DNA of 64,000 nucleotides, from positions 1,760,001 to 1,824,000 of the forward strand of contig OZ241875.1 of assembly GCA_965203325.1 (NCBI GenBank), written 5' to 3'. A model generated the notes under the pieces. The model worked only from the letters and a program-made list of their open reading frames with translations, searched no databases and was not told the origin of the DNA. Below are positions 23,599 to 43,124 of this stretch, piece after piece; the stretch's first letter is position 1, and every line of letters begins with the position of its first letter. Origin of the DNA: a bacterium. GTDB lineage: Bacteria > UBA8248. A program made the position numbers and the translations under genes.

Positions 23599-23769
23599 TT
23601 GAGGGTCTGGCTTCCCGAGGGGAAAGCCAGACGATGAGGTGAGGGTGTAAACCCGAAGCCGAATCGGTGGGGGGACAAGCCACAGGGCAAACCTCCCCCC
23701 ACCGCAGCCTTCGCACAAATCGCTCGGCTTTATCGTCGGGCTTTCCCCTCGGGAAGCCAGACCCTCAAT
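23599..23769. repeat. REP/MITE-like element with ~37-bp terminal inverted repeats
   Basis: TTGAGGGTCTGGCTTCCCGAGGGGAAAGCC.GACGAT ... ATCGTC.GGCTTTCCCCTCGGGAAGCCAGACCCTCAA. Confidence 0.8.
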
Positions 23770-24196
23770 AGGCGAGTTGATTTAAAATTCTCTTTGGTGA
23801 ATAGAGATCTCCATAGGTGACATACAACAGTTTTTCAACAGCCCCTCCTCGGTCGGAATCGATCCACAGGCGGGGGCGGCGTCGAACCCTCCCTCTTCGG
23901 TCGGGTCCGACCAGTGACGAACTGGCTCAACTACTCGGGTGGCTTTCCGCCTTCCTACGAGAAATACCGCGAGATGCTAGAGGAGGAATAAAGGCCTCGC
24001 AAACCCTCCCTCAAGGGGTTGTTGAAAAAGCCTTTATCAAAGGAGCAACCCCCTCTACCCCTGGAAATCCGGCGCGCGGCGCAAGCCGGCGCGCATGGGC
24101 CGATTTCACATGCGCCGGAACGATGGTAGAATCGGGCGGCAAGGCCGAAAATCACGAACCAGGCAAACGACCATTCCCGGAGGAGGAAAAGCGGGA

Positions 24197-25075
24197 ATGA
24201 CTCTTCGCATCAGGGCGCGCCGGGCGGTGCTCGCGCTCGCGCTCGCCACAGGCATGATTCCGGGATTCGCGGGCGCGGCGTCCGTATCGTGCGCGTACTG
24301 GAACACGCTCGTTTTCTTCATCCGCGCCGACGCAGCGGACGTCGCCCTCTGCCTCGAGACGAAAAACGCGAACGCGCGCGACGCGGCCGGCCTCACCCCC
24401 ATGCACCGCGCGGCGGGGTTCGGGAAGACACCCGCCCTGGTGAGGACCCTGGCGGAGGCGGGCGCTCGGCCGAACGCGCGCGATGCGAACGGGATGACGC
24501 CGCTGCACCTGGCGGTGAACTTCAACAAGAAGCCCGCGGTCGTAGCCGCGCTCATCGCCGCCGGCTCCCGGACCGAGGCGAGAGAACGGCGCGGGTGGAC
24601 GCCGCTCCACCTCGCGGCGGCCTTCGGCAAAACGCCCGCCGTCGTGCGCGCGCTCGCGAAGGGGGGCGCGAAGCTCGATGCGAAGACGGGGGTCGGGCGC
24701 ACGCCGCTCCATCTGGCCGTGCAGGCGGGCGCAGCCGCCACCGTGACCGCTCTCGCGAAAGCGGGCGCAAAGGCGGACGCGCGCGACAGGTTTGGACGCA
24801 CGCCGCTCCATCTGGCCGCGCAGGGAAGTTCTCCCGCCGTCGTGCGCGCGCTCGCGAAGGCAAAGGCGAAGGTGAACGCGCGCGACACGCGCGGGAAGTG
24901 GACGCCGCTTCACCTCGCGGCGTGGTTCGGCAAGAGCCCCGCCGTCGTCCGCGCCCTCATCCAGGCGGGCGCCGACGCGCGCCTGAAGGACAAATCGGGC
25001 CGCAAGCCGCCCGATTACGCGAGGCGGAACAAGGCGCTTCAGGGGAGCACCTCCCTCTTCAAGCGGAGGAAGTGA
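24197..25075 (+). CDS. Secreted ankyrin-repeat protein (about 7 repeats)
   Basis: Signal peptide then repeated G.TP(L/M)H.AA...P.VV.AL..AGA..(N/D)ARD. Confidence 0.92.
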   Translation: MTLRIRARRAVLALALATGMIPGFAGAASVSCAYWNTLVFFIRADAADVALCLETKNANARDAAGLTPMHRAAGFGKTPALVRTLAEAGARPNARDANGMTPLHLAVNFNKKPAVVAALIAAGSRTEARERRGWTPLHLAAAFGKTPAVVRALAKGGAKLDAKTGVGRTPLHLAVQAGAAATVTALAKAGAKADARDRFGRTPLHLAAQGSSPAVVRALAKAKAKVNARDTRGKWTPLHLAAWFGKSPAVVRALIQAGADARLKDKSGRKPPDYARRNKALQGSTSLFKRRK

Positions 25076-28356: not shown

Positions 28357-29555
28357 AAATTAGACTTGAGTCTATGAAATAGAACGACTTCTTGGCTGGA
28401 ACGAAGCTTGCCTTTTGAATGTGCGTACCATTTTCTATTTGGCACAATTCGCCACGCTCTTTGGTCTTTAGTATTCGCGAGAGAAGGATATTTGATTTCT
28501 TTAAATCCACAAACACGCATTTCATTAAGATATTTAGGTAGCTGCCACTCAGGGTCAGAAAAGGCTACAAGTTGCACAACTATTGTTTCACTGTCTGAAA
28601 TCTTTGCAAGCGAAGAAAAAGAAGAGCGCAGATTTTTGAAATAATCTACTAGGTATTTCTGCTCACGATTCCCCAATGTGTAATAAGTTTCCCCATTTCC
28701 ATCCAAGGTTCCTGTGATCCAGTACGGTGCGGGAGTTTCTCTCCGACCTTGTATTTGCCATCGATGATATAGGACATGGACTCCAGGGTATGGTGGTGAA
28801 GTTAGAATTAGCTTTGGGGCTTCAACTTTGTTTTTGGAAAAAAAAGTTTTCAGATTAGAGGCGGGCAGACATAAGCAAACAGGATTGATACTCGATTTTG
28901 ACAACCAACTAGGCTTTGTTTCTTTTGCGGATTCTTTGAGAATGGTGGCTCCTGAAACCATTCTCTTGAAATAAAAAATCAGTTTTTCACGAAACTCTTT
29001 TGCTGATGGGATAGCTATTCGAGAATCCAGCGCCCATTGACCTGTCTTAAGAAGGACGCAACGTGCAAAGTTTCTTTGGCGTTGCGTTTTAAGAGAATTT
29101 AACTCAGAAATTGCGAGTGCCAAAAGTTTTCGTATCGGCCAAGTTTGCTTTCCGTTGATATTACGAAGGTATCCATTCTTTTCCCAAGTTGTTTGCAGGC
29201 TTGAAGGTTGACGAAGATTTAATTTGCTTGTGAGTGTCGCAGCCCAAGCGGACAAATCAGAAGCATCATTTTTTGACAACGTAGTTGTCTTCACCTTAGA
29301 TACGAAAATCGACAATTCATTTATATCAGAACCGATTGATTTTCTTCCCAAAGATTGTGCTTCCACTAAAGCTGTTCCGCCCCCCATAAATGGATCAAGG
29401 ATTAAGTCTCCTGGCTCCGTGAACATTTTGATGGCAACTCTAGCAAAGCTTGGTGAACATCGCGCGGGGTAACGATAAAAATCATGAGTCAATCCCGAGA
29501 CCCACGAATGATCATGGATGGCTTTAAGAAAGTCATCCTTGAGTCCATGCTTCAT
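28341..29555 (-). CDS. DNA amino-methyltransferase (probably m4C, alpha-class order)
   Basis: TH.FYRYPAR, SAM motif DPFMGGGT near N-terminus, catalytic TSPPY downstream. Confidence 0.88.
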   Translation of the reverse strand: MKHGLKDDFLKAIHDHSWVSGLTHDFYRYPARCSPSFARVAIKMFTEPGDLILDPFMGGGTALVEAQSLGRKSIGSDINELSIFVSKVKTTTLSKNDASDLSAWAATLTSKLNLRQPSSLQTTWEKNGYLRNINGKQTWPIRKLLALAISELNSLKTQRQRNFARCVLLKTGQWALDSRIAIPSAKEFREKLIFYFKRMVSGATILKESAKETKPSWLSKSSINPVCLCLPASNLKTFFSKNKVEAPKLILTSPPYPGVHVLYHRWQIQGRRETPAPYWITGTLDGNGETYYTLGNREQKYLVDYFKNLRSSFSSLAKISDSETIVVQLVAFSDPEWQLPKYLNEMRVCGFKEIKYPSLANTKDQRAWRIVPNRKWYAHSKGKLRSSQEVVLFHRLKSNFQSSS

Positions 29556-29812: not shown

Positions 29813-31171
29813 ATGCCGAGAAGAGTTGCCATTATCGGTGCGGGGGTCTCGGGACTGGGGGCGGCCTGGGCGCTGAACCGCCACCCCGAGCGGTTCGATT
29901 TCAGGCTCTTCGAGGCGCAGGAACAGGTGGGCGGCAACGCCGTCACCGCCGACATGCCGCAGGACGACGGCACCTCGATCCCCTTCGATATCTCCGTCAC
30001 CGCCTGCATCCCCTCGGTGTACCACCACATTCTTCTGCTGATGCAGATGTACGGAATCGAGCTGCTCGATACCCGGTTCAGCTACAGCGTGAAGTACCGG
30101 GGCGGCGTCTACGCGCACGATTTCGACTCCGACATCAGGCGGCAGCTGAGGCCCGAGATCGAGAAATTCCAGAAACTCTTAAGACGCCTGCAGTGGTTCG
30201 GCGTGCTCAGCCGCTCCCGCTCGCGGCTCCTGGGCGCGCTCAACCCGTTCAACTACGTGAGCATGGGCGCGGTCCTGAACCTGGGAAGATTTTCGGCTGA
30301 TTTCAGATACAAGATATTAAAACCCATGTTCGTCAACTTCCTCATGGCCACGAACGTGTTCGACATGCCCGCATCGCTGTTCTCGCGGTATCTGGAGTTC
30401 TTCGACATCGAATCCGCCACGCCGATGCAGACCTGGGACCGGGGCACGCGCCGCATCTACGAGGCGCTCTCGGCGGATTTCCGCGAAAAAATATATCTGG
30501 GCCGTCCGGTGCGGAAGGTGTACCGGGGCGCATCCGAGGTCGTCGTAGAGGATGAAGCGGGGAATAAGGAGACGTTCGATGCCGTCGTCTTCGCGTGCAA
30601 CGCGAACCAGACGCTGATGATGCTGGATGGGGCGACGAGGTTCGAGAACTGGCTGCTCTCCTCGATACGGTATGAGAGCGAACTGCACAACCACACGGTC
30701 GTCCATTCGGACGCCTCGGTGCTGCCGGATAACGACGTCCGGGCGCTCGCTACCCGCAGCAACCACATCGAACAATACGGCGCGCGGCCCGACAACTACG
30801 AGATCACCTACATCATGCACAACCAGCAGCCCTGGGCGAAGCGCTCGGACAAGCCGTGCCTGGTGACCTACAACCCCGTCAGCCGAATCGATGAGGACAA
30901 GATCATCAAGCGGTGGTGGTTTCAGCACATCGTCCACGACGTGCCCCACATCGCCTTGCTCATCCACCTGTTCCGCTTCGCGCAGGGGAGGAGGCGGACG
31001 TGGCACTGCGGCGCCCACACGCTCATCAACAGCCAGGAGACCTGTTTCGTCACCGGCCTCGCCGCGGCGAGGCAGCTGGGGGCGGACTATCCGTTTCAAG
31101 ATTCAGAAGCCAGGAAGTGGTTCAACTTCTACGGGCGCACGATGTACGGCCGGCGCTTCAAAAAGGCGTGA
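29813..31171 (+). CDS. FAD-dependent oxidoreductase (amine-oxidase fold, COG2907-like lipid desaturase/reductase type)
   Basis: RVAIIGAGVSGLGAAW, FEA...VGGNA, VHSD.SVLP, ITY.M, LVTYNP, QGRRRTWHCGA. Confidence 0.75.
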   Translation: MPRRVAIIGAGVSGLGAAWALNRHPERFDFRLFEAQEQVGGNAVTADMPQDDGTSIPFDISVTACIPSVYHHILLLMQMYGIELLDTRFSYSVKYRGGVYAHDFDSDIRRQLRPEIEKFQKLLRRLQWFGVLSRSRSRLLGALNPFNYVSMGAVLNLGRFSADFRYKILKPMFVNFLMATNVFDMPASLFSRYLEFFDIESATPMQTWDRGTRRIYEALSADFREKIYLGRPVRKVYRGASEVVVEDEAGNKETFDAVVFACNANQTLMMLDGATRFENWLLSSIRYESELHNHTVVHSDASVLPDNDVRALATRSNHIEQYGARPDNYEITYIMHNQQPWAKRSDKPCLVTYNPVSRIDEDKIIKRWWFQHIVHDVPHIALLIHLFRFAQGRRRTWHCGAHTLINSQETCFVTGLAAARQLGADYPFQDSEARKWFNFYGRTMYGRRFKKA

Positions 31172-31383
31172 GGCGGGGCTCCCCTGGCGCGGACGCTCCG
31201 GCGAAGCGCGGCGGCGCAAGGGGAGCCCGGCATCGCGGGTTATTTCAACAATCCCGCGAACCGCGGGTTCGATTCCGGGAAGAATTATATGCCGCAAACT
31301 GGTAATATAATCGCGGAAGAACACGATGCGCTCCGCTTTCTGCTTTTGCCGGCTCTGCCGATGACTTTCGACCGGAGGGAACC

Positions 31384-32202
31384 ATGATGCACGCTCATCT
31401 CGTCCGCACCGCTTTCCTTGTTCTCGCGCTCTGCGCTTTCTTTCTGGCTCATCCGCCTGCGCCGCCGCACGCGGAGGGCGCGACGCCCGAGGAAAAAGGG
31501 CTTCAGATCGCGCGCGATACCCGCGAGAGAGCCAAGGGCTTCGGAAACTTCACGGCCGAGCAGTCCATGGTGCTGCGCAACAAGCACGGTCAGGAGAGCC
31601 GGCGCCAACTGCGCGTGAAGGTGCTCGAGACGGACGGAGGCGGCAACAAGAGCCTGTTCGTCTTCGATCGCCCGCGCGACGTGAGGGGAACCGCGCTGCT
31701 CGTCCACGCCCACAAGAAGAAGAACGACGACCAGTGGCTCTACCTGCCCGCTCTGAAACGCGTCAAGCGCATCAGTTCGTCGAACCAGTCGGGCTCGTTC
31801 ATGGGCAGCGAATTCGCCTATGAGGACATGGGCACCCAGGAGGTGGAGAAATTCACCTACCGCTACCTGCGCGACGAGCCCTGCGGCAAGCTGACGTGCA
31901 CGGTCGTCGAGCGCTTCCCGACGAACAGGCGCTCGGGCTATCGCCGCCAAATCGTCTGGCAGGACAAGGGCGAGCTTCGCGCCTGGAAAGTGCAGTACTA
32001 CGACCGGAAGAACTCGCACTTGAAGACGCTCACGGTGAAGAAGTACAAGCAGTATCTGGGCAAGTACTGGCAGGCGCACGAGATGAACATGGTGAACCAC
32101 CTCACAGGCAAGAGCACCGTGCTGAGTTGGAAGGACTTCAAGTTCCGCACCAGGCTCAAAGCCAGCGAATTCACGCGAACCGGCCTGAAGCGGGTGCGCT
32201 GA
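31384..32202 (+). CDS. LolA-like outer-membrane lipoprotein-sorting / periplasmic lipid carrier
   Basis: Signal peptide; F..P.DVRGT.LL, DDQWLYLPALKRVKRIS, SFMGSEF.YED, YYDR....LKTL. Confidence 0.85.
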   Translation: MMHAHLVRTAFLVLALCAFFLAHPPAPPHAEGATPEEKGLQIARDTRERAKGFGNFTAEQSMVLRNKHGQESRRQLRVKVLETDGGGNKSLFVFDRPRDVRGTALLVHAHKKKNDDQWLYLPALKRVKRISSSNQSGSFMGSEFAYEDMGTQEVEKFTYRYLRDEPCGKLTCTVVERFPTNRRSGYRRQIVWQDKGELRAWKVQYYDRKNSHLKTLTVKKYKQYLGKYWQAHEMNMVNHLTGKSTVLSWKDFKFRTRLKASEFTRTGLKRVR

Positions 32203-33458
32203 TGCCGCCCCGCGCCGCTTTTCCCCGCGCGGTGCTGGCCGCCGTCCCCATCCTGGCCGTTTTCCTTTTCATCGGGACGAGCCTCGGGGCCGAAAGCATC
32301 GAGCACGAACTCTCCGGCAGCCTGGACGTCGACGGCCGGTGGTATCCCCAAACAGGCGCCCATCCCGAACAGCGCGCGCACGCGAGCGGCTTCGCAGCGG
32401 AGCCGAAGCTCCATCTCGAAGGCGGGGGGAACTGGAGTTTCACGATCTCGCCGTTTTTCCGCTACGACGGCGCGGACTCACGCCGCACCCACGCCGATTT
32501 GCGCGAGGCCTATCTTCTCATGTTCGGTGAAGCCGGCGACGGGGAATGGGAGTTGCGCCTGGGTGTGGACCGCGTGTTCTGGGGCGTCACCGAATCGCAG
32601 CACCTGGTCGACATCATCAACCAGACCGACCTCGTCGAGCATCCCAACAAGGAAAGCAAGCTGGGCCAGCCCATGGCCCACCTCACCTGGTCGGCGGAGT
32701 GGGGCATCCTGGAGTTTTTCGCCCTGACCTATCACCGCGCGCGCACCTATCCGGGCCGCCACGGCCGCCTGCGCTCCTCGATTCCCATAGACGACGAGCA
32801 CGTCTCATACGAGAACGCCGCCGGGGAGTGGCGCGTGGACCTCGCCGCCCGCTACAGCCACAGTTTCGGGCCTTTCGATTTAGGCCTCAGCGTATTCGAC
32901 GGCACCAGCCGGGATCCCTTTATCACCCCGCACCTGGACGAGCGCGGCGCGCTGACCCTGCGCCAGCACTACGAACCAATCCTTCAGTTCAGCGTGGACG
33001 CCCAGCTCACAATCGAGTCGTGGCTGCTCAAGCTCGAAGCCCTTCACCGCGAAGGCGCGCGGAACCTCCTGGGAATGGAAGAGGACTACGCCGCTTTCGT
33101 CATGGGCGGGGAGTACACCTTCAATTCCATCTGGGGCTCGGCCGCCGACCTCGGCCTCCTCGCCGAATGGAATTACGACGAGCGGCGCGAGCGTTCGAAC
33201 TCCGAGTTCCAGAACGACCTCTTCTACGCCGTGCGCCTGGGACTCAACGACGCCCAGAGCACGGAGATCATCGCCGGCGTTCTCGCGGACGCGGATCATT
33301 CCACGCGCACCATGAGCTTCGAACTGAGGCGCCGCCTCTCGGACCAGTGGTCCATGAAGCTCGAAGCGATTGTGCTGATGGACGTGGATGAGGAAGACAT
33401 CATCTACGACACGAGGCGGGACAGCTTCGTGGCCCTGAACGTGACGTACAATTTCTAG
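32202..33458 (+). CDS. Outer-membrane beta-barrel protein of the type accompanying RND/LolA-like pairs
   Basis: Translationally coupled (TGATG); signal peptide, 'DLREAY', 'G...VFWG..E....VDIIN', C-terminal 'VTYNF'. Confidence 0.75.
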   Translation: MPPRAAFPRAVLAAVPILAVFLFIGTSLGAESIEHELSGSLDVDGRWYPQTGAHPEQRAHASGFAAEPKLHLEGGGNWSFTISPFFRYDGADSRRTHADLREAYLLMFGEAGDGEWELRLGVDRVFWGVTESQHLVDIINQTDLVEHPNKESKLGQPMAHLTWSAEWGILEFFALTYHRARTYPGRHGRLRSSIPIDDEHVSYENAAGEWRVDLAARYSHSFGPFDLGLSVFDGTSRDPFITPHLDERGALTLRQHYEPILQFSVDAQLTIESWLLKLEALHREGARNLLGMEEDYAAFVMGGEYTFNSIWGSAADLGLLAEWNYDERRERSNSEFQNDLFYAVRLGLNDAQSTEIIAGVLADADHSTRTMSFELRRRLSDQWSMKLEAIVLMDVDEEDIIYDTRRDSFVALNVTYNF

Positions 33459-33538
33459 ATCGAATTTTCTTGTCTCTGCGCCCGTTGGAGTGCCCGCGTT
33501 TCGGGATGCGCGGGAGACGCCGCGCCGGCCGTTGCCGG

Positions 33539-35587
33539 TCAGGAAGTGAGGGCGACCGCCCGTTGGTCGCTTTCCGCCCGGTCACCCACCGCCCGATCAG
33601 ATGAGAAGATCGGGCGCTTCGACTTGATTCGGAGCTTGAGGCTCTTGCGAGGGGTGCAGGTCGGGAACGGATTGATTTTGACCGGGTAGCTCGATGGCAG
33701 CACTTCAAGCTCGAAGTAGTAGGCGATCATCAAAAGGTTGAGCGTCATTTGATATTCCGCCACTCTCGGGCCGAGGCAGGTGTGCGTACCGAAACCGAAC
33801 GCCCCGTAAGCCCCGTGTTTCTTGTGCTCCTCGCGCCCGGGAAGATACCGGTCGATGTCGAACTTCTGCGGATCCGGATAGTTCTCCTCCATGTAGTGCA
33901 CGGCGGTGGACGCCAGCACGACGCGAGCATCGAGGGGTAGTTCATAACCCTCCACGATGCAGCTGTTCATGACGGTTCTCAACTGCAACGGCACGCTAGG
34001 GTAGATCCGAAGGGTTTCGAGAATCAGCCGGTGGGCGGTGTCGATGGCCTCAGGCGTGATGTCCTCCGGATCGGGGTCTCCTTCGGCGAACAGCGCCTCG
34101 GCTTCCCTGCGCACGCGCTGAAAGACGTCCGGATGGGAGACCATCAAATAGAGCCCGAACGCGACGGCGGTGCCCATATACATGGCCGCGACGAACGGTA
34201 TGATCATCATGAACCTGGTATCGGTATCCGGAAAGTACTGCGGGTCGCTGGCGTGCAGGCTGAGCAGGTCGTCGATCAGGTCGCGGGGCTGGTTTTCACG
34301 CTGCGCCGGGGTGTGCGAGTTCCGGATCATGGAATAGACGTGGTCGATTCGCCGCCGGATGGCTTGCATTCGCGGCGTTCGCATGAAGAACTTCGGCAAA
34401 ATCTTCTGCGCGTAGGTGATCAACATGCGGTTCTTGTATTTGTGGATGTCGTCCACGTATTCTGAAAAGTCCATGCTGAACAGGAGCCGGGATACCTGGC
34501 CGGACATGAGGGTGCGGCTTGCGTCCTTGGCGACGAGCACGTCGCCCACGTTCCACGAATCAAGCGCAAGCCGTATCTCTTCGAACAGATCTCCGAGACG
34601 GTCGTTCAGGCGGCTCCGGGAGGAGGCCATCTGGAACGCCTTGCGCATACGGAAGTGTTCGGCCCCGTCCATGCCCGGCAGGCTTCTCGACGCGCCGAGC
34701 ACGGTCTCCATCCCCTCCATGGTTTCCTTCGATCGCAGGTGCATCCGACCATTCCGGTTGACCCAGATGTTCGCATCGTTCCCGGCGATGACGAAAACTC
34801 TCTTCTTGGAAAAGGGAGCCTTGATCACGAAGACCGGGCCGTAGTCGCGGTAAAGGTCGGCCAGCAGTCTGGACGTATTCCCTTGCCAAAGTGAATCTTT
34901 GCGGAGCATTTTCAACAGGCTCACGTTGGGAATGGGTTTCGTCGCTATCGCGATGGAGCGACTGACCGATGTCTCCGCGACGGCGGTGGCGACGGATCGA
35001 CTGATGCGGTCCAGCATGCCCAGCAGTTCGATACGCTCGCGTGAAGCCTCGTAGTCGCGCGGTTGCAGAAGAAACCTGAATGCGTCGCAGGCATCGGCAA
35101 GTCCGATGATGATGGCGTCACGGGGATAGGGTATGTCGTCCCCCAAGATCGTCTCGACGATCCGCTGGCGGACTATCGACCGGGACTCGCCATTGGACAT
35201 GCCGTTGTCCGCTTTCGCCGCGTCTCGCGAGAGAGACCAGAAACCGCCGTTCGTATAGTACAGGACCCCGTTTTTCGACAACCGTTCGAGAGAATGATAC
35301 AGGATATCATCCGACGTACCGGCGATTTTCTCGACCCAGTAACTGACGGTGCGTGGCTCCGGATCGGCGGCAATGGTCGCCAGAACGGGGTCGAGGAGAT
35401 CGTCTCCCATAGGTGATGGATCGTCCAACGAAAGCATCTCTTGAGCGGTGTCGATACGGGACTCGAGGTCGAGGTCCGCCAGCGCGGCGCCGGCGAGAAC
35501 GCACGAGAGATTCCAGCCCGCCACCTGTTCGAGATAGCCGCTCTCTTCGTTCAGCAACAGGAGTATGATTTCTTCCGTCAGCCTCAT
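33539..35587 (-). CDS. GPP34/GOLPH3-like domain fused to cytochrome P450
   Basis: N-terminal 'LTEEIILLLL...G....LAGA.LADL.LE.RI......P.GDDLLD..L..I' GPP34-like segment; P450 ETLR (ExxR), F.IDR, heme motif FGFGTHTCLG. Confidence 0.85.
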   Translation of the reverse strand: MRLTEEIILLLLNEESGYLEQVAGWNLSCVLAGAALADLDLESRIDTAQEMLSLDDPSPMGDDLLDPVLATIAADPEPRTVSYWVEKIAGTSDDILYHSLERLSKNGVLYYTNGGFWSLSRDAAKADNGMSNGESRSIVRQRIVETILGDDIPYPRDAIIIGLADACDAFRFLLQPRDYEASRERIELLGMLDRISRSVATAVAETSVSRSIAIATKPIPNVSLLKMLRKDSLWQGNTSRLLADLYRDYGPVFVIKAPFSKKRVFVIAGNDANIWVNRNGRMHLRSKETMEGMETVLGASRSLPGMDGAEHFRMRKAFQMASSRSRLNDRLGDLFEEIRLALDSWNVGDVLVAKDASRTLMSGQVSRLLFSMDFSEYVDDIHKYKNRMLITYAQKILPKFFMRTPRMQAIRRRIDHVYSMIRNSHTPAQRENQPRDLIDDLLSLHASDPQYFPDTDTRFMMIIPFVAAMYMGTAVAFGLYLMVSHPDVFQRVRREAEALFAEGDPDPEDITPEAIDTAHRLILETLRIYPSVPLQLRTVMNSCIVEGYELPLDARVVLASTAVHYMEENYPDPQKFDIDRYLPGREEHKKHGAYGAFGFGTHTCLGPRVAEYQMTLNLLMIAYYFELEVLPSSYPVKINPFPTCTPRKSLKLRIKSKRPIFSSDRAVGDRAESDQRAVALTS

Positions 35588-35686
35588 CCGAAATCGCCTC
35601 TCAAGATTTGGTGAAGGAGTATTCTGCTCCTCGCGGCTTCCAAAGGACAGGACTACGCCGTTCCGGCGCCCACGGCAGGAAGCCGA

Positions 35687-35730
35687 TGGGGCCATTATGG
35701 CCCAGTAAAACGATTGATTTCAAGTATTTT
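35687..35730 (-). promoter_or_regulatory. Putative sigma70-like promoter shared with the RND gene
   Basis: Minus strand TTGAAA-N18-CATAAT; TGGGGCCATTATGGC is identical at 39344-39358. Confidence 0.5.
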
Positions 35731-35774
35731 GTTCCGTATCCATCGCTCCGACAACCGCATGAAGCCGCGCCTGT

Positions 35775-35959
35775 GAGGTCGTTGAAACAGTCCCGATTTT
35801 CAGGGGGTGGAGGGGCAATCAAATCGACCGGGGAGGCGCCGCCCCGTAGGGACAGGCCTCCGTGCCTGTCCTGATTCGAACCATCCCGCACCTGATTCGA
35901 ACCATCCCGCAAAAGGACAACCACAACACCGACCAACCACGGGTTTTTCAACAGCCCCC
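35775..35959. mobile_element. MITE with IS1182-like ends, internal GTAG-REP and 21-bp tandem duplication
   Basis: GAGGTCGTTGAAA ... TTTTTCAACAGCCCC; GTAGGGACAGGC..GCCTGTCC; CCTGATTCGAACCATCCCGCA x2 (35870-35911). Confidence 0.65.
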
Positions 35960-36699
35960 TATCCGCCGCCCATGGCCGCGAGCCGCTCGACCGCTTTTTG
36001 GTGAATCAGCCGCTCCAAGGCGTCTTCGGGCGGTAATTTTACCGCGCGCTCGAGCAGGCCGCGCGCCCTTGCGCGGTTCTTATCGGCATCCAGGCTCAGA
36101 AGACCGAGCGCGTACTCGAACAGCGCCGATTTGTCCCGAGGCACCAGTTCGAGCGCCCGCCCGAAATGGGCGAGCGCCTCCTCTTCGCTCGCCCCGTAGA
36201 GCAGACCGGCGAAGAATCCCCCTGCGCCGACGGCACCCGCATGCCAAGCGGCCAGGCTGACGTGGGCGGCCGCCATTTTCGGGTCCAGGCGAAGCGCCTC
36301 CTGAATCGCATCGCGCACTTTGGTTGCGTAACCCTCCTTGAGCGCCTTAAGCGCGCCGCCCACCTGCGCCTGGCGGCCCATGGCGTGGGCCAATTGGAGA
36401 TGGGCCTCGGGGTTGGCCGCGTCCAGCCGAACCGCCTCCCGCGCGAGTTTCTCGGCCCGCTTGAACAAGCCTGCTTTTTCACCCTCCGGCGCGATGTAGT
36501 AGCCGTGAATCGCCAGTGAATCGGCGGCCAAGGCATAGCCCTCCGAGGTTGCGATAACCCGGGCGAGATCGGCGGCATCCACGAAGCGGCCCTCGGCATA
36601 CGCGGCGCGCGCCTCTTCGATCGACTGCGCGCAGGCATTCCCCGCAAACAAGAACGTGCAGGCAATTGTCAGGTAGATACGGAATAGGGACTTGTACAT
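35959..36699 (-). CDS. Exported TPR-like helical protein
   Basis: Signal peptide; repeats 'A.RLD..NPEAH', 'ALRLDP...AAH', 'F.RALEL.P'. Confidence 0.75.
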   Translation of the reverse strand: MYKSLFRIYLTIACTFLFAGNACAQSIEEARAAYAEGRFVDAADLARVIATSEGYALAADSLAIHGYYIAPEGEKAGLFKRAEKLAREAVRLDAANPEAHLQLAHAMGRQAQVGGALKALKEGYATKVRDAIQEALRLDPKMAAAHVSLAAWHAGAVGAGGFFAGLLYGASEEEALAHFGRALELVPRDKSALFEYALGLLSLDADKNRARARGLLERAVKLPPEDALERLIHQKAVERLAAMGGG

Positions 36700-36906
36700 T
36701 ATATACTTCCTGCGGACCGGCGGACTCCATGGCCGTTTCGGTTCAGGAGGGTATTATACGAAAATCGCAAGAGGCGTCCGTTTCGCAAAAAAGTCGTCTG
36801 CCCTGCTCCGGCTTGCGGGCGAGTATGAAATACATCGGGATGAAAATGCCGAGGCGGCCGGCTTCGCTGATGACCGCAGCGGCAAGGTTCATTCGGTGAG
36901 CATGGA

Positions 36907-39222
36907 TCATTGCGTCTTTCGGTCGAGGGCTATCAGCAGGGGCGGCAGGAGCAGCAAATCCAGGATCAGCGCGAAGCTGAGCGTGAGCGCCACCAGGAGG
37001 CCGAGCATCCAGGTGATCGCGAATCCCGACGTGGCGAACACCAGGAAGCCCAGCACCAGGATCGAGGTCGTGGAGAACAGCGCAAAACCTACCGAACGGA
37101 AGGTGGTGCGCACCGCCTCGGGTGAGGAAAGGCCCTCGCGGCGCCCCTTCAGATACTTGCTCATGAAGTGAATCGTGTCGTCGACGACGATCCCGAAGGC
37201 GATCGCGGTCACGAGAGAACCGGCGGGCCCCACCTCGCTGTAGAGATAACCCCAGACGCCGAAGGCCATGGCAGCGGGGATGAGGTTGGGCATGAGGCTG
37301 ATGAGGCCGAGGCGCAGGCTCTTGAAAATCCCGATCAGGATCAGCGAAATGAGGACCATGCCGGTAAGCGTGCCCCACAACATGCTCAAGGTGTTCCGAA
37401 TGGCCAGATGGGCGAAGATGAGGCTGTACCCCGACGCCCCTTTCGCGAGGCCGGGCGCGTTGGCGCTGAGCCATTTCTGCCCGCGCGCTTCGAGCGCGCG
37501 CAACTCCTCGGACTTGAGTCTTTTGAGTGTGACGGTCATGCGCGTGGCGGATTTGGCGACGTTGATGCGATTGTTGAGGTCCATGCCGAAGGGAACCGAA
37601 AACTCGTAGAGCAGCAGATACTGCGCGGCAAGCCGGGAGTTTTCCGGCAGCCGGTAGAAGGCGGGATTATCGCCGTTCATGTTCTTGTTGAGGCGCTTCA
37701 TGATGTCCGTAAACACCTGGACATGCGCCACTTCCGGCTGGGCGCGGTACCATCCGGCGAAAGCCTCGACTTTTTTCAGGTACGCAGGATCGGTGATTCC
37801 GGCTTCGCGCCCGGAGTCGAGGGAGTACTCCAGGGTTTCCACGCCGGTCAGGTTCTCGATGACGAAGTCCGTGTCGCGCCGGAACTCGTAACGCTCATCC
37901 AGATGCTGCGTCCAGTTGTCCGTCAGCTCGACGCGGGGCACACCCGCCACGAGCGCGATCGCAACGACGGCCGCAGACCAGAGCAGGAACGTGCGGCGCG
38001 CGACGACGAAGGCGCCGAGCCGATCGAAGAGGCCGGAACCCCCGGCGCCCGCCTGTCGCGCGCGCAATGGCAGGACCGACAGCAGCGCCGGCAGAAGCGT
38101 CATGGAATAGGCGTAGGCGCACAGCATGCCGAACGCCACCAGGTTGCCGAGTATCCGAAAAGGCGGAGAGTCCGAGGCGTTCATGCTGAGGAACCCGATG
38201 ATCGTCGTGGCCGTCGTCAGGAACACGGGCCAGGCATTGTGGCGCAGCGATTCGGCAATCGCCGCGTCCCTGTCCAGACCTCCCCGCATGCCTGAAACGA
38301 TCGAATCGACGACGTGGACCGAGTGCGCGATGGCGAGCGTCATGATGATGAGGGGAACGCTGGAGTTGGCTGCGTTGAGCACCAGGCCGATCCAGCCGAT
38401 GACGCCCATGGCCGAGATGACGGTGAAGATGACGACGGCGATGAGGGACAGCGTGCCGAACAGGGAGCGCAGGAGGATGGCGGCGACGAACACGATGACG
38501 AGGAATGCCGCGGGCGCGAGAATCCCCATATCGTCCTGGGCCGCTTCCGTCAGGACCTGGTTCACGAAGACGTTGCCGGTAACGTGATATTCGATGTCCG
38601 GGTGCTTCGCCCGGGCCTTGGCCAGGAGGCCGCGGATATGGTTGTAAATCCGTATCTCCGCGGCGTCGGAACGCTCGGGCAAGGCGAAAATGACGACCAG
38701 ACCGGCGACGCGCCCGTCTCCCGAGACGAGACGGCCTACGACACTGCTCTCGCTCAGCGCAATCTTCTTGATCCGCGCGAGGTCTTCGTCGCCGAGCGAG
38801 CCCGCGTCGTCCACGAGGCGCTCCACGATCAAGTCGTCCCCTTCCGCCTCGGTGTGGTTATAGTTGACGAGGGAGTCGACCCGCGTGGCCCTAGGCACGC
38901 GCCACAAGTCCTCGGTCAACTCTTCGATGGCGCCGAGCGCCTGCCGCGTGAATACCGACCCGCCCTTGGGCGCGACCGCGACCACCGCCGCATTGGTCGC
39001 CGAATAAGTGGCTTCCATGGCGTCGAATGCGACGAGTTCGGGATTGCCCTCGTCCAGCATGTCGCGCCAGTCGTTGGAGATAACGATGGTGCGGAGGCCG
39101 ACCGCCAGAACCAGCATGACGCCCAGGGCCGCCGCGAGGAAGAGCCATCGGCGCCGCAACAAGAACGCAATGTAGCGGTTTAGAGGTGCGGACATCAGGG
39201 GCCTCGCTATCCGGCGGCTCAT
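36907..39222 (-). CDS. MMPL/RND-family (sterol-sensing-like) lipid transporter
   Basis: Two-fold repeat with ~12 TM; 'LT..TT..GF.S...SD.PPF', 'GIVVDDTIHF', periplasmic loops. Confidence 0.9.
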   Translation of the reverse strand: MSRRIARPLMSAPLNRYIAFLLRRRWLFLAAALGVMLVLAVGLRTIVISNDWRDMLDEGNPELVAFDAMEATYSATNAAVVAVAPKGGSVFTRQALGAIEELTEDLWRVPRATRVDSLVNYNHTEAEGDDLIVERLVDDAGSLGDEDLARIKKIALSESSVVGRLVSGDGRVAGLVVIFALPERSDAAEIRIYNHIRGLLAKARAKHPDIEYHVTGNVFVNQVLTEAAQDDMGILAPAAFLVIVFVAAILLRSLFGTLSLIAVVIFTVISAMGVIGWIGLVLNAANSSVPLIIMTLAIAHSVHVVDSIVSGMRGGLDRDAAIAESLRHNAWPVFLTTATTIIGFLSMNASDSPPFRILGNLVAFGMLCAYAYSMTLLPALLSVLPLRARQAGAGGSGLFDRLGAFVVARRTFLLWSAAVVAIALVAGVPRVELTDNWTQHLDERYEFRRDTDFVIENLTGVETLEYSLDSGREAGITDPAYLKKVEAFAGWYRAQPEVAHVQVFTDIMKRLNKNMNGDNPAFYRLPENSRLAAQYLLLYEFSVPFGMDLNNRINVAKSATRMTVTLKRLKSEELRALEARGQKWLSANAPGLAKGASGYSLIFAHLAIRNTLSMLWGTLTGMVLISLILIGIFKSLRLGLISLMPNLIPAAMAFGVWGYLYSEVGPAGSLVTAIAFGIVVDDTIHFMSKYLKGRREGLSSPEAVRTTFRSVGFALFSTTSILVLGFLVFATSGFAITWMLGLLVALTLSFALILDLLLLPPLLIALDRKTQ

Positions 39223-39343
39223 GGCCGCGGCAAACCCGCCGGTTCCATGGGCGGTTGCTTACTGGATACGAATCCCGATCATCGCAACGCGGCTTGCGCG
39301 GTGAAAATCCATGACGCTCGGGCCGCTGCAACAGTGAGCCAAG

Positions 39344-39387
39344 TGGGGCCATTATGGCTTAGCGGATCGATGGATTCAAGCTTTTTG
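39344..39387 (-). promoter_or_regulatory. Putative sigma70-like promoter, copy of the P450 upstream motif
   Basis: Minus strand TTGAAT-N17-CATAAT followed by GGCCCCA. Confidence 0.5.
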
Positions 39388-39424
39388 TCCTGCGCCGTAT
39401 TCTCCGGACGGCGCGCGGGAACCA

Positions 39425-39712
39425 GGGGTTGTTGGAAAAGCCCCCTCATCAGGGGATGAAGGCACCCCCCCCTACCCCCCCTTGTCAGGGGTCAAACGCG
39501 AGTGATGAACGAGCGTTTGCATAAGCCATTGACGAGAAACACATCGTCTTGCAAAACCTCCCTCTTCGGTCGGTTTTGACCCCTGACAAGGGGGGGTAGG
39601 GGGGGGTGGTTTTCAGGGCGAGGAGAGCGTGCCGAATCCGCCTTTGGCCGTCATTCCGGCGAAAGCCGAAATGACGGTGAACTCTGTTGCATTGGGCTTT
39701 TTCAACAAGCCC
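39425..39712. mobile_element. MITE with IS1182-like ends containing nested palindromes
   Basis: GGGGTTGTTGGAAAAGCCC ... GGGCTTTTTCAACAAGCCC; internal IR CCCTACCCCCCCTTGTCAGGGGTCAAA / TTTGACCCCTGACAAGGGGGGGTAGGG and hairpin CCGTCATTCCGGC-GAAA-GCCGAAATGACGG. Confidence 0.7.
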
Positions 39713-39898
39713 GATCTACCGCGTCCTTGCCGCCTCAAAAAAAACTTGACAAAGGTGAGGCGTCTTTGAGTATATCTATAATACAGATTCCGTAAGGCTT
39801 TATCGCCCTTATTCCGTTCTGGGGAAGAAACCGGATGATATCGTCCGTCGAGCGATTACCGAGATACGTGCGAGTCGACCTGAAAGCGAGGAGAGGAC

Positions 39899-40831
39899 AT
39901 GAAACTGATTTCAAAACGGGAAAACACTTATAAACAAATGATCGTTGCGGCGGTCGCTTTAGCCGTGTTTCTTCTCCCGGCGTTCGCACCCGATGCGCGC
40001 GCGGCGGATTCGAATGCGCAAGCTGAGGGTTCGAGATGGTACTTCGGCCTGAACGTGCCGGTCATGTTCATCGACGACTCGGACAGCGTCGAGAGCGGAG
40101 CAGCGCAAGCACAAGGAGCCCCCCTGCCAGTCCCATACAGGGCGAACGCCCTCACGGAATACGCTACGGGGTACAGGATCAGCGGCGTGGTGGGCCGTGA
40201 ATTCGGCGCGGGCCTGCGCGCCGACGCCGAGCTCTTCTTCGCGAGGGCCGAGGTCGACAAGCTGATCTACAAGGGACGGACCACAACCGTGCCGCAACTA
40301 GGCACTTTTGATATCGCTGGCGACCATTCCATCCCCGTCTCCGGCTCGGCGAGCCAGTTGGGCGCCATGGTGAACGTCTGGTACGACTTTAACGCGGGCT
40401 CCAAATGGAGGCCTTACATCGGCGGCGGCTTAGGACTCGTCCGGGTCGACTGGGGCGACGTGAAGTATGACCGCAACGAGGTCGCGCAGGGGGCTGCGAA
40501 CCAGCTTGCGCTCATCGGTGCGTGTGCGCAGCTTATGCAACCTCCGGGCTGCACTCTGCCTCCACCGGTCGAACAAGGAGCCCTGGCCCTGGCCACCCTG
40601 CCCCCGGGGACCGTGCCGGACCTTTCCGACACGGATACGGTGCTCGCCTTTCAACTCGGCGCGGGGGTGGGCTACCAGTATTCTGACGCCATTACCATTC
40701 AGTTGGGCTACCGCATGCTGAAAGCCGGCGATTTGGAGTTCAGCGGCAGTAGCGCCATGGGTTCAACGGCCACGGCGACGACGGAAATGCTGGTCCATCT
40801 CTTCGAGATAGGGATACGCTATCGGTTCTAG
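39899..40831 (+). CDS. Small outer-membrane beta-barrel (OmpA-like/opacity/P44-Msp2 type) with long loops
   Basis: Signal peptide, 'MVNVWYDF', 'PYIGGGLG', 'AFQLGAGVGY', C-terminal 'GIRYRF'. Confidence 0.8.
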   Translation: MKLISKRENTYKQMIVAAVALAVFLLPAFAPDARAADSNAQAEGSRWYFGLNVPVMFIDDSDSVESGAAQAQGAPLPVPYRANALTEYATGYRISGVVGREFGAGLRADAELFFARAEVDKLIYKGRTTTVPQLGTFDIAGDHSIPVSGSASQLGAMVNVWYDFNAGSKWRPYIGGGLGLVRVDWGDVKYDRNEVAQGAANQLALIGACAQLMQPPGCTLPPPVEQGALALATLPPGTVPDLSDTDTVLAFQLGAGVGYQYSDAITIQLGYRMLKAGDLEFSGSSAMGSTATATTEMLVHLFEIGIRYRF

Positions 40832-40969
40832 GCGTCGCGTGGCTCCTGAGCGTCCCGCCGGGACGAGGAACACGATTACGCGCGCCTCATACGGTTGCCG
40901 GCCGGGCATGACGCCGGCCGAACCCGCAGGCGAAGCCGCAGCCTTGGAACCGGGGGATGGCGGATACCG

Positions 40970-42001
40970 ATGAAAACCGAGCGAATCGAACGCAGAGAAA
41001 CAGCCTCGCTTTACCCATTCCCGGAAGGCTGGTACTTCATCGCCACCCGAAAAACGATAGAGAAGAAGAAGCTGATCCAAAGAACCTGGATGGGCGAGCA
41101 GATCGTCGTCTGGTGCGACGATGAGGGGCGCATCTGCGTGGCCGAGGACCTCTGCCCGCACCTGGGTTCCGAACTCGGGCCCGAAGTCGGCGGCGTGGTG
41201 CGGGACGGCTGCCTCGTTTGTCCTTTTCACGGGTTCGAGTACGACGCCACCGGTCAATGCGTGGCCACGCCCTACGCGCCGGCGCCCAGAACCGCCAGGC
41301 TTAAGGTTTTCGAAACCCGCGAAATCCTGGGTCTCGTCTTCGCCTGGTGGGGGCTGGGCGGACGCCCGCCGCAATGGCGTCTCCCCGAAGAGCCGAGCGG
41401 AGACGACTGGAGCGACCTCGAAACCTGGAGCGTGCGGTTCTCGGGGCATCCCCAGGAAACGACCGAGAACTCCGTCGACGACGGACACCTGCGCTACGTG
41501 CACGGCTTCGGCAGCGTGAACCGGGTCGGAACGATAGAGGTGGAGGGTTCCTACCTCAAGAGCTGCTTCGACTTCACGCGAAGCCAGACCCTCGCCGGGA
41601 TGAACATCTACACATACGACGTTTCCGCCGTCACCCACGTGCACGGGCTGGGCTATTCGTTCGTCGAGGTTCACGAGGACGGCATCGGCATGGATACGCG
41701 CCTGTGGGTGCTCGCGACGCCTATCGACGGCGAGGTCATCGAAATGGTGCTGGTCAGCCAGCTAAAGCGAATACGGAAGCCGAAGCGGCCGATCTTCGGC
41801 ATGCGCTTTCTGCCGTCCGGTCTTCGCACCCGGCTCATGAACAAAATCATCATAGCGGCCCAGAAGCGCGACGTTTTATCGGACGTCGTCATATGGGACC
41901 GGAAACATTACGTGCCGCGCCCCCGCCTGTGCAGTTCCGACGGGGAGATTGGCGTCTTTCGGCGCTATTGCGAGCAGTTCTATCCGGATCGGACGGATTG
42001 A
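40970..42001 (+). CDS. Rieske non-heme iron oxygenase (KshA/Neverland-like sterol oxygenase type)
   Basis: FPEGWY, CPHLG...CPFHG Rieske cluster, ENSVDDGHLRYVH iron site, 'D..IW..K.Y...P.L...DG.I..FRR...QFY' C-terminus. Confidence 0.85.
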   Translation: MKTERIERRETASLYPFPEGWYFIATRKTIEKKKLIQRTWMGEQIVVWCDDEGRICVAEDLCPHLGSELGPEVGGVVRDGCLVCPFHGFEYDATGQCVATPYAPAPRTARLKVFETREILGLVFAWWGLGGRPPQWRLPEEPSGDDWSDLETWSVRFSGHPQETTENSVDDGHLRYVHGFGSVNRVGTIEVEGSYLKSCFDFTRSQTLAGMNIYTYDVSAVTHVHGLGYSFVEVHEDGIGMDTRLWVLATPIDGEVIEMVLVSQLKRIRKPKRPIFGMRFLPSGLRTRLMNKIIIAAQKRDVLSDVVIWDRKHYVPRPRLCSSDGEIGVFRRYCEQFYPDRTD

Positions 42002-42092
42002 GTTCGGAGGGGCGAGGCCGGCGGGAGAGCCGTCCGCGCCATCGCCCGCGCGGGTTTCGCCGGACACGAAGAGAGAAAGGACACGCCACGCC

Positions 42093-43124
42093 ATGGAAAT
42101 AGGCAAACTATCGAAAGAGCTCAAGGATGCCTATCAAGAGGGGAACGTCACCCGCCGCGTGCAAGACTTCGAGGGCTGGATCGACCGGGCGGCGGAGTCC
42201 GACGGCGCGAGCGGGTACGACCACACCGAAACGGTGAAGGCCTACTACGACCTTTGCAGCGGTTTCATGGTGTGGGGTTGGGGCGAATCCCTGCATTTCG
42301 CGCCCCTCTCGCCGAACGAGAGTCTGGAGGACTCGAAAGTCCGGCATCAGCGGCTGATGATCGACAAACTGGAGTTGCAGAGGGGCATGACGGTGATCGA
42401 CGTCGGCTGCGGCATCGGCGGCCCGATGCGCCGCGTCGTCCGTGAGGCCGGCGTCCGGGTCGTCGGGATCAACATCAACAAAATCCAGCTGGAGAGGGCG
42501 AAGAGGTTGAACGCCGAGGCGGGGCTCGACCACATGATCGATTACGAGGCGTGCAGCTTCATGGATATGAGCACCATCGGGGACGAGGCGTTCGACCGGG
42601 GCTACGCCATCGAGTCGACGTGCCACGCGCCGGACAAACAACGCGCCTTCGCGGAGATATTCCGCGTCCTGAAACCCGGCGCCCTGTTCTGGGGCCAGGA
42701 GATGTGCCTGACGGAGAAGTTCGACCCGAACGACGCCCGGCACCGGACCATCAAGCGGGAGCTCATGCGCGGCATTGCGCTCAAGGAGGTCGCGACGTTC
42801 GGGGAAGTGAACCAGGCGCTCGAAGCGGCGGGATTCCAAGTCGTCGAAGGGATGGACCGGGAGGTCCGGGAGGGGCCGTCCACACCGTGGTATCAACCCA
42901 TGGAGAGTCGGCACGGGACGCTGGGCAACGCCTTGCGCAGGCTTCCGCAGGGCCGCAGGGCGGTCCTCGCGGGCTCGAAGCTGGCCGAGGTGGTCCGGCT
43001 GTTTCCGAAGGGTTCCGCGGAAGTCGTCCGGCTCCTGGATCGGACCGCGGACGCCTATGTCGCGGGCGGCAAATCGGGCATCTTCACGCCGCTGTACTGC
43101 TTCCTGGCCCGCAAACCCCTTTAG
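42093..43124 (+). CDS. Sterol C24-methyltransferase (SMT/ERG6 family)
   Basis: YYD....F..WGWGESLHFA, DVGCGIGGP, YAIESTCHAP, EIFRVLKPG, PWYQP, C-terminal GGKSGIFTPLY.FLARKP matching the ERG6/SMT layout. Confidence 0.88.
   Translation: MEIGKLSKELKDAYQEGNVTRRVQDFEGWIDRAAESDGASGYDHTETVKAYYDLCSGFMVWGWGESLHFAPLSPNESLEDSKVRHQRLMIDKLELQRGMTVIDVGCGIGGPMRRVVREAGVRVVGININKIQLERAKRLNAEAGLDHMIDYEACSFMDMSTIGDEAFDRGYAIESTCHAPDKQRAFAEIFRVLKPGALFWGQEMCLTEKFDPNDARHRTIKRELMRGIALKEVATFGEVNQALEAAGFQVVEGMDREVREGPSTPWYQPMESRHGTLGNALRRLPQGRRAVLAGSKLAEVVRLFPKGSAEVVRLLDRTADAYVAGGKSGIFTPLYCFLARKPL

Follow-up and report, generated by a model that had tools for sequence, protein, structure and literature searches.

Two features of sponge-symbiont genomes have been published separately. 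The first is an enrichment of sterol methyltransferase (SMT) genes, reported together with sterol clusters in sponge metagenome-assembled genomes (MAGs) (PMC9531527). Brown et al. (2023, PMC10070321) described SMT homologues in the sterol clusters of sponge symbionts and MAGs, 4 of 24 being inactive according to the text. Their '2 of 2' homologues are 34.5–35.6% identical to ERG6, and the type is represented by A. aerophoba JGIcombinedJ30088_100008359, the Nitrospira MAG gene 2682229270 and the T. swinhoei Chromatiales gene 2690456335. The second feature is GPP34_L, a protein reported as exclusive to sponge symbionts (PMC11706023). Of its 663 long forms, 656 join GPP34 to a cytochrome P450, and in two genomes the partner is a Rieske domain; GPP34 is thus fused to either of the two oxygenase types of the cassette described here. 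We report that these two hallmarks are neighbors in one conserved mobile cassette. The locus in question occupies positions 29813 to 43124 of a 64,000-nucleotide stretch of bacterial DNA (lineage UBA8248; assembly GCA_965203325.1, contig OZ241875.1, positions 1,760,001 to 1,824,000 of the forward strand). This whole stretch is called the window, and coordinates refer to it unless a genome or another locus is named.

We judge it slightly more probable than the contrary that the locus represents, in its Nitrospinota form, a cassette exchanged horizontally among sponge symbionts, which tailors a sterol-type lipid and moves it across the envelope. The original prediction, made from the letters of the window, had read the locus as a module that captures and remodels sterols without a cyclase. 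A Pfam scan of 45 open reading frames (ORFs) of the window, followed by refinement of the gene starts, confirmed all nine genes that it named. They form three transcription units: a flavoenzyme, a LolA-like and a DUF1302-like gene on the plus strand; an MMPL transporter, a TPR and a GPP34-P450 gene on the minus strand; and an OMP_b-brl, a Rieske oxygenase and a methyltransferase gene (hereafter MT) on the plus strand. The four enzymes (flavoenzyme, GPP34-P450, Rieske oxygenase and MT) have neither a signal peptide nor a transmembrane segment, while the LolA-like, DUF1302-like, TPR and OMP_b-brl proteins carry N-terminal signal peptides. The window genome (G000) is a single contig of 4,392,711 bp with a marker-gene completeness of 95.5%, and the closest homologues of its MT carry Nitrospinota MAG source names.

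The cassette extends far beyond this genome. Relatives of the MT were found in at least 559 stretches of species-representative genomes, and the best 80 of these loci encode proteins 73–98% identical to it. Their titles name Nitrospinota, Dehalococcoidia/Chloroflexota, Nitrospirales, Latescibacterota, Gemmatimonadota, Actinomycetes and Thermodesulfobacteriota, and further Rhodothermales/Bacteroidota, Binatia, Acidobacteria, Dadabacteria, Alphaproteobacteria and Gammaproteobacteria. The cassette is thus present in sponge-symbiont MAGs labelled as about 12 phyla, and because the MT keeps this level of identity across phyla, we conclude that it has been transferred horizontally. Gene neighborhoods were counted in the 63 of the 80 loci that have full 10-kb flanks. 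The GPP34-P450 lies beside the MT in 59 of these 63, the Rieske oxygenase in 52 and an RND pump of either type in 49; MT, P450 and Rieske occur together in 50. The flavoenzyme was counted in 26 of 63, which is an undercount, as its own gene lies 11 kb from the MT in the window. Among the 80 loci, 71 of 73 P450 matches cover the GPP34 part, and the median gap between P450 and MT is 100 bp. Chance is very unlikely to produce such a gene combination. Public sequencing runs also contain DNA nearly identical to the locus: at least half of the sampled words are present in eight of them, four of which, from two studies, bear the label sponge metagenome.

Within the phylum, the MT is restricted to the genus of the window (51 genomes, namely G000 and 50 others). 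Thirteen of the other 22 genomes of the genus encode at least two of the four enzyme orthologues, and the remaining nine, all of them 94–100% complete, encode none. Among the 13 cassette genomes, the MT orthologue is missing from G065, G081 and G085, the Rieske and P450 genes from G070 (79% complete), and the flavoenzyme from G072; in G068 and G085, a P450 paralogue of 44–45% identity takes the place of the GPP34-P450. In five relatives whose loci were fetched, the enzyme and envelope genes were all found with two exceptions, as the L092 stretch has no flavoenzyme and in L093 a 44% identical paralogue occupies the place of the P450. The original prediction had made co-conservation its own test, and both the cross-phylum counts and the split of the genus into 13 and 9 show that the genes are co-inherited. 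The ratio of nonsynonymous to synonymous substitution (dN/dS), calculated pairwise against the five relatives, is 0.19–0.26 for the cassette and 0.06–0.32 for individual enzymes; it is 0.19 against the congener G076, which likewise has no cyclase. The cassette is therefore under purifying selection, also in cyclase-less genomes.

Several neighbors connect the cassette with sterol chemistry. In the Nitrospirales locus L019, it lies next to a canonical SMT, ERG24 and a Rieske gene of the SdmA type. The gene order of L019 equals that of the IDs 2682229270-79 in the 'Nitrospira sp., coral reef' MAG, of which PMC10070321 gives 2682229270 as SMT '2 of 2' (35.6% identity to ERG6) and 2682229274 as the active '1 of 2'. 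Because the two gene orders match, we assign the MT of the window to the '2 of 2' type. In congeners, cyclases of about 1200 aa are fusions of squalene epoxidase and oxidosqualene cyclase (SE-OSC), scoring 721 bits on osq_cycl versus 265 bits on hopene_cyclase, and beside them lie a paralogous GPP34-P450 (39% identity) and an MMPL gene. We observed this arrangement at L081:5218-13390 and in L082 (genomes G064 and G077), with an SE-OSC of 1184 aa, a GPP34-P450 paralogue of 776 aa, an MMPL gene, and no CYP51 or ERG24 adjacent. The fused SE-OSC is encoded in 5 of the 13 cassette genomes of the genus versus 0 of the 9 cassette-less ones. Its island is flanked by insertion sequences (IS) in the congeners and is absent from the window genome. 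A synteny search defined no deletion scar of the island there, the flanks being multi-copy IS elements; IS copies abound in the window genome, and more than 10 of them are related to those that flank the island in the relatives.

A reductase adds to this link. The window genome encodes a member of the ERG4/ERG24 family 466 kb from the locus, and its best match in the PDB is the delta14-sterol reductase 4quv (5.7e-33). Orthologues of this reductase occur in 10 of the 13 cassette genomes versus 0 of the 9 cassette-less genomes of the genus. Among 50 genomes that carry the MT, 31 have an ERG4_ERG24 match above the cut-off, versus 0 of 14 control genomes, and these 31 include 26 of the 44 that have no OSC. 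In the loci L071, L060 and L055, the reductase gene is located inside the MT locus itself. The sterol-tailoring module of the original prediction thereby gains a contextual link to sterols through the neighbors, the reductase and a remnant of a canonical SMT (see below), and it is from this genomic context and the enzyme families that we infer a sterol as the substrate.

The window genome itself has no cyclase. No match to SQHop_cyclase_C (PF13243), SQHop_cyclase_N (PF13249) or SE (PF08491) was found in it, and a tblastn search with the fused SE-OSC of a congener returned nothing at E<=1e-5; the same search found neither an SdmA orthologue nor a canonical SMT. The absence of cyclase and epoxidase, first claimed for the window, thus extends to the whole 4.39-Mb genome, which lacks the OSC and squalene epoxidase that characterize a de novo sterol cluster. 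Between the MMPL and TPR genes, at 36809..36892 on the minus strand, lies a stub that corresponds to the last 28 codons of a canonical SMT (Sterol_MT_C, 30.8 bits). It is 71–79% identical to the C-termini of intact canonical SMTs in the relatives L091 and L093, which carry two copies and one copy, respectively, at the position of the stub (2 of the 5 relatives fetched). Judging from this alignment, the window genome lost its canonical SMT by deletion and retained the 28-codon stub. Because cyclase and epoxidase are absent and the canonical SMT is lost, any sterol substrate would have to come from the sponge host or from sterol-making neighbors.

The same state prevails among other carriers. 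Of the 50 MT genomes, whose completeness is not reported although many are titled as single chromosomes, six have an OSC-type cyclase (720–738 bits on TIGR03463) and 44 have no OSC. Cyclases of 670–780 aa with 224–293 bits on TIGR03463, which are probably of the squalene-hopene type, are present in 11 of the 50, and neither kind of cyclase is found in 36. The cyclase-less state is the rule among MT carriers.

The GPP34-P450 gene is located on the minus strand at 33539..35587 (ORF open to 35695), its start being likely M37 at 35587. GPP34 (residues 39–241, 96 bits, 3.8e-27) and p450 (residues 255–679, 1.1e-41) share one reading frame, and the protein is cytoplasmic, with neither a signal peptide nor a transmembrane segment. 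Both the heme motif FGFGTHTCLG and the ExxR motif (ETLR) are intact, and the P450 domain counts CYP51 among its best solved relatives. We also notice a stand-alone short GPP34 protein (217 aa, 166 bits) at G000:C1:682277-682930, next to genes for a STAS-domain protein and an EamA transporter; this gene lies 15 kb from the squalene genes HpnCDE of the window genome. Another P450 (459 aa), unrelated to the first, is encoded at G000:C1:3711963-3724872 and is directly followed by a class I methyltransferase (317 aa) that lacks Sterol_MT_C. As HlyD and AcrB genes are found 6 kb beyond this pair, the group may be another set for lipid tailoring and efflux.

The Rieske non-heme-iron oxygenase (343 aa) is encoded at 40970..42001 on the plus strand and matches Rieske (1.4e-18) and KshA_C (5.2e-22; 79 bits versus a cut-off of 23.3). 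It is the sole KshA_C gene of the window genome. Its best solved relatives are KshA structures (PDB 2zyl and 4qdc) at 9e-24 to 4e-22, the last over the full length, with 82–87 bits. Its Rieske motif (CPH-17 residues-CPFH) and the HX4H of its mononuclear iron (HLRYVH) are intact. KshA, Neverland and SdmA had all been offered as models for this enzyme; the likeness to KshA stands, whereas the protein is no SdmA (39.1 bits on the equivalog NF052579, cut-off 600), and the SdmA-type gene of the Nitrospirales locus L019 bears VanA_C, not KshA_C. A duplicated Rieske fragment with a stop codon lies 3' of the MT at L093:18529-19002, a sign of cassette turnover.

The flavoenzyme (452 aa), one of the core enzymes and a member of the FAD amine-oxidase family, is encoded at 29813..31171 on the plus strand (Amino_oxidase, 7.3e-17). 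Its best solved relative is LkcE, with 1.6e-26 over the full length, followed by 2b9w. Orthologues of 75–87% identity are present in 34 of the 80 loci, from many phyla, and in 12 of the 22 genus genomes, and the dN/dS of the gene is 0.12–0.17. Turnover is seen here as well, since a copy in G067 (G067:C23:2772-4123) contains five stop codons.

The pump and the envelope proteins differ between versions of the cassette. The MMPL/HAE3-type RND transporter (771 aa; 36907..39222, minus strand) has approximately 12 hydrophobic segments and matches MMPL (2.1e-32) and Sterol-sensing (6.9e-08). HAE3 is its best subfamily, at 144 bits versus an NCBIfam cut-off of 352. HpnN had been cited as a precedent for the pump, but the HpnN equivalogs TIGR03480 and NF052374 give 63 and 35 bits against cut-offs of 752 and 1100, so the transporter is not an HpnN orthologue. 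In other phyla, AcrB, HlyD and OEP stand in for MMPL (Pfam, 56 ORFs from five loci). The LolA-like periplasmic lipid carrier (272 aa; 31384..32202, plus strand) carries a signal peptide, matches LolA_like at 6e-61 and aligns with PDB 3bk5 at 1.7e-80. Its gene is present in all five genus relatives fetched, yet in none of the 80 loci within 10 kb on either side of the MT. The TPR protein (246 aa; 35959..36699, minus strand; Pfam TPR_11 and TPR_14) is periplasmic by its signal peptide. Its gene was found in 14 of the 80 loci and in all five fetched relatives, and the protein has no sequence match among solved lipid-binding TPR proteins.

Of the two outer-membrane barrels named in the original prediction, one is clear. 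The OMP_b-brl protein (310 aa; 39899..40831, plus strand; 4.5e-12) has a signal peptide and ends in ...IRYRF, and its gene occurs in 9 of the 80 loci, all of them from Nitrospinota or Nitrospirales. The DUF1302-like putative outer-membrane protein (418 aa; 32202..33458, plus strand) is weakly supported as the second barrel. It has a signal peptide, a C-terminal ...VTYNF and an Atlas lead of 0.98 to a DUF1302 cluster; its match to DUF1302 (E 0.0033) is below the cut-off, and a fold prediction from a 6-row alignment gave a pLDDT of 30, which is unusable. The ATG of its gene at 32202 overlaps the stop codon of the LolA-like gene (TGATG), and the two are translationally coupled. The whole set had been treated as one unit. 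This holds across phyla for the enzymes and the pump, whereas the LolA-like, barrel and TPR genes are confined to the Nitrospinota/Nitrospirales version of the cassette.

The methyltransferase is a divergent C-methyltransferase of the SMT family. Its gene starts at ATG 42093 and ends at 43124 on the plus strand (343 aa; homologues have 344 aa), and the ORF 41949-43124 given earlier was overlong. The protein contains CMAS (67 bits), Methyltransf_11 and Sterol_MT_C (PF08498, 60.1 bits versus a cut-off of 21.7), and its S-adenosylmethionine (SAM) binding site DVGCGIGGP fits the class I motif DXGXGXXGP (Region II). The nearest named relatives are fungal sterol 24-C-methyltransferases with 35–38% identity, and an Atlas lead agrees. 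A homologue of 477 aa (P0012) also has a KshA_C match, as a fusion or a miscall, which is a further sign of cassette turnover.

A number of observations weigh against our reading, and those on the MT come first. Its Region I (GFMVWGWGESLHF) contains GWGESLHF, which does not match the SMT motif 84-GWGXXFHF-91. In ERG6 numbering, inferred from the motif in a preprint (10.64898/2025.12.19.695621), F89 is changed to L and T78 to S, and M and W replace Y81 and Y83; according to the preprint, GWGXXFHF is among 25 residues that every functional SMT conserves, and residue 81 lies at the side-chain pocket. The MT clade is separate in a tree of 121 rows (SH-aLRT, an approximate likelihood-ratio support, of 100; stem 0.61) and falls inside no functional SMT group; it forms a polytomy with the canonical bacterial SMTs and the group holding the named fungal SMTs. 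This tree is poorly rooted, as the outgroups were two window-genome paralogues with long branches, one of which landed within the ingroup. The original prediction had taken the enzyme to be of the SMT/ERG6 type; the tree assigns it to no functional group, and its Sterol_MT_C score is above the cut-off. On these sequence comparisons, the MT appears to be an SMT-family enzyme but not an ordinary C-24 SMT, and the C-24 alkylation once ascribed to it is unproven because of the separate, long-stemmed clade and the altered sterol-pocket motif. The remodelled pocket likely points to a site or a substrate other than the standard delta-24 sterols.

Other points lie outside the MT. No redox partner (KshB-type reductase or ferredoxin) was found among the locus genes by the Pfam scan, and no RNA run is listed among the public runs that hold the locus. 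The unreported completeness of the 50 MT genomes bears on the cyclase counts given above. RND pumps are exporters, and the 'capture' or import of sterols, the weakest part of the earlier reading, would fit poorly with this. Finally, an endogenous triterpene substrate, overlooked before, is available to the cassette, because the window genome encodes HpnC-HpnD and HpnE and SQS_PSY genes are present in 48 of the 50 MT genomes. At G000:C1:696137-699652, a NUDIX-HpnC-HpnD fusion (719 aa) and HpnE score above the NCBIfam equivalog cut-offs, with 456 and 429 bits for the fusion (cut-offs 250 and 279) and 302 bits for HpnE (cut-off 283). Squalene made through HpnCDE is thus, from the gene content, a possible endogenous substrate.

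This leads to an alternative that we regard as unlikely, though not lightly dismissed: the cassette works on an endogenous acyclic triterpene, with squalene from HpnCDE or a derivative methylated, oxidized and exported, and no exogenous sterol is involved. The MT would methylate a terminal double bond in the manner of an SMT, the P450 and the Rieske enzyme would oxidize the product, the flavoenzyme would process it and the RND pump would export it. A genome that has the HpnC-HpnD fusion and HpnE but no cyclase suits this scheme, as does the remodelled pocket of the MT. The terminal isoprene unit of squalene is chemically the same as the delta-24 sterol side chain, and SMT-like triterpene methyltransferases of Botryococcus reportedly methylate squalene. 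The HpnCD core is found in 21 of 22 genomes of the genus, only 5 of which have a cyclase, so its presence is general; but as it is also found in 8 of the 9 cassette-less genomes, it does not co-vary with the cassette. What does co-vary with the cassette is OSC and the ERG4/ERG24-type sterol reductase. Moreover, the cassette adjoins complete sterol pathways, and the Rieske enzyme has its closest solved relatives among enzymes that work on the steroid nucleus. A catabolic or detoxifying module, in which KshA-like ring hydroxylation and side-chain oxidation by the P450 start the breakdown or inactivation of host steroids and the pump expels the products, seems very doubtful to us. The relationship of the Rieske enzyme to KshA and the linked efflux pump (49 of 63 loci) would suit it, but a C-methyltransferase is not known to have a role in steroid catabolism (the 9,10-seco pathway). 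Neither a KshB reductase nor a steroid-catabolic context turned up among the 45 ORFs of the window, and the Pfam scan of the window, with no genome-wide search made, showed no KstD, Hsa or beta-oxidation genes at the locus or next to it. The neighbors are biosynthetic sterol genes, not catabolic ones.

The cassette of the window genome could also be a leftover of a lost de novo sterol pathway, now without a substrate. The deletion of the canonical SMT down to a stub, the absence of the SE-OSC island of the relatives and the IS-rich genome agree with such a history, which we nevertheless hold to be highly improbable, since all nine genes are intact with their catalytic motifs kept, selection is evident from the comparison with the cyclase-less G076, and the lack of OSC in 44 of 50 MT genomes means that the cyclase-less state is no recent accident. 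Another proposal starts from the GPP34 domain. Here, the GPP34-P450 would be a secreted effector that binds phosphatidylinositol 4-phosphate (PI4P) of the host and blocks phagosome maturation (PMC11706023), and its neighbors would be an unrelated or loosely related lipid-efflux island. The clear GPP34 match, the publication of the long form from sponge symbionts only (PMC11706023) and the additional stand-alone GPP34 gene speak for this. The protein, however, has no signal peptide or transmembrane segment (secretion independent of a signal peptide remains conceivable), its heme and ExxR motifs are those of a conserved enzyme, it keeps its close spacing to the MT across phyla, and its paralogue adjoins SE-OSC; sterols and methyltransferases each have 0 occurrences in PMC11706023. 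We find the effector explanation quite improbable. A broader version of our own reading, to which we give little credence though somewhat more than to the effector, is that symbionts of a dozen phyla share a cyclase-independent conversion of host or neighbor sterols into unconventional sponge sterols, followed by export. It would include side-chain methylation outside the C-24 route (for example, 26-methyl) or ring-oxygenated sterols, and GPP34 would be a docking domain for oxygenases, not a host effector.

If the cassette does tailor and move a sterol-type lipid, its parts could work together as follows; here we infer the enzyme reactions, the role of GPP34 and the direction of transport. The four enzymes, in the cytoplasm or at the membrane face, would act on a membrane lipid as the likely substrate. 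The MT would add a carbon at an isoprenoid C=C, and the KshA-like Rieske enzyme and the P450 would hydroxylate or desaturate the lipid, using O2. The GPP34 domain may be a peripheral-membrane or substrate-docking module that holds the P450, a role suggested because the gene sits in a conserved sterol-type cassette of enzymes and a pump. The LkcE/isomerase-like flavoenzyme might reduce, desaturate or shift a double bond. Either this enzyme or the ERG4/24-type reductase, which despite its distance may functionally belong to the set, would handle the double bond resulting from the MT step. The MMPL/RND pump, with the LolA-like carrier, the TPR protein and one or two outer-membrane proteins, would then ferry the lipid between the inner membrane on one side and the outer membrane or the exterior on the other. 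The precedent of RND pumps makes an outward direction the most likely one.

The surroundings of the locus in the window contain several further features. Immediately 5' of the cassette, positions 25903-29555 form an island of low GC content (39–44% versus about 62% elsewhere). It contains an N6/N4 DNA methylase (404 aa) and two ORFs, of 221 and 560 aa, that match no Pfam family, and is probably an acquired restriction-modification or defence island. Farther upstream, at 22126-25075, we find genes for an IS transposase of 481 aa (DDE_Tnp_1/DUF772) and for an ankyrin-repeat protein of 326 aa; sponge symbionts typically carry both kinds. At 16840-20444, a gene for the surface lipoprotein assembly modifier SlipAM adjoins a 586-aa ORF without a Pfam family, possibly its surface-lipoprotein cargo. 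On the other side, at 53122-59843, lies an ordinary AddA/AddB-type helicase-nuclease pair (1191 and 1087 aa).

Should the cassette act on a sterol, most carriers (the 44 of 50 without OSC) would be unable to make this substrate themselves, and the cassette would represent a route of cross-kingdom sterol remodelling. This suggests that sponge symbionts rework sterols made by the host or by neighbors. Were it true, it would bear on who makes the unusual sponge sterols, a question central to the debate on 24-isopropyl and 26-methyl sterane biomarkers, as well as on the membrane adaptation or signalling of symbionts inside an animal and on the function of the GPP34 domain in bacteria. Under the broader reading of a conversion shared by a dozen phyla, host and bacteria would jointly have produced part of the 'sponge' sterol biomarker record. 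The four cassette enzymes provide a panel that can be tested directly against sterols and squalene. New in our analysis are the complete genome without a cyclase, the co-inheritance in the genus with OSC and a sterol-type reductase, the SMT stub, the purifying selection and the squalene alternative.

HpnN- and BstA-type systems (BstABC) traffic hopanoids or sterols with an RND pump and periplasmic carriers. The locus resembles them in that its RND pump is combined with a carrier in the periplasm and a TPR protein associated with the outer membrane, in keeping with the logic of moving a polycyclic lipid from inner to outer membrane. It differs from HpnN in a pump that is no orthologue and is closest to HAE3, in a LolA-like carrier and in a TPR protein without a notable solved relative. 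With KshA, the Rieske enzyme shares the architecture of Rieske and KshA_C and intact metal-binding motifs; the similarity is modest, and the locus has neither the KshB partner nor the catabolic context. A model for the pair of MT and flavoenzyme is BfaB/BfaA, in which a SAM methyltransferase turns a lipid C=C into an exomethylene, which the FAD enzyme of an adjacent gene then reduces (PMC5660069). The parallel is one of reaction logic, as that system differs in its fatty-acid substrate and in the family of its methyltransferase.

The original prediction had known of no description of the gene combination. In a full-text literature search, we found no paper that links GPP34 with sterols in sponges, describes the cassette or joins the two parts; the components have been published separately (PMC10070321, PMC11706023). 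The '2 of 2' homologues of PMC10070321 are, by gene order, of the same clade as the MT of the window. The clusters of that paper are defined by SMO/OSC, CYP51, ERG24 and SdmAB and are read as de novo synthesis, and the window genome has none; the Rieske enzyme, GPP34-P450, flavoenzyme and pump are left undiscussed there ('Rieske' has 0 occurrences). With GPP34_L, the protein of the window shares the two-domain architecture and the sponge-symbiont setting. In PMC11706023, GPP34_L is proposed to be a secreted, PI4P-binding anti-phagocytosis factor, whereas in the window it is a member of a conserved cassette of enzymes and a pump.

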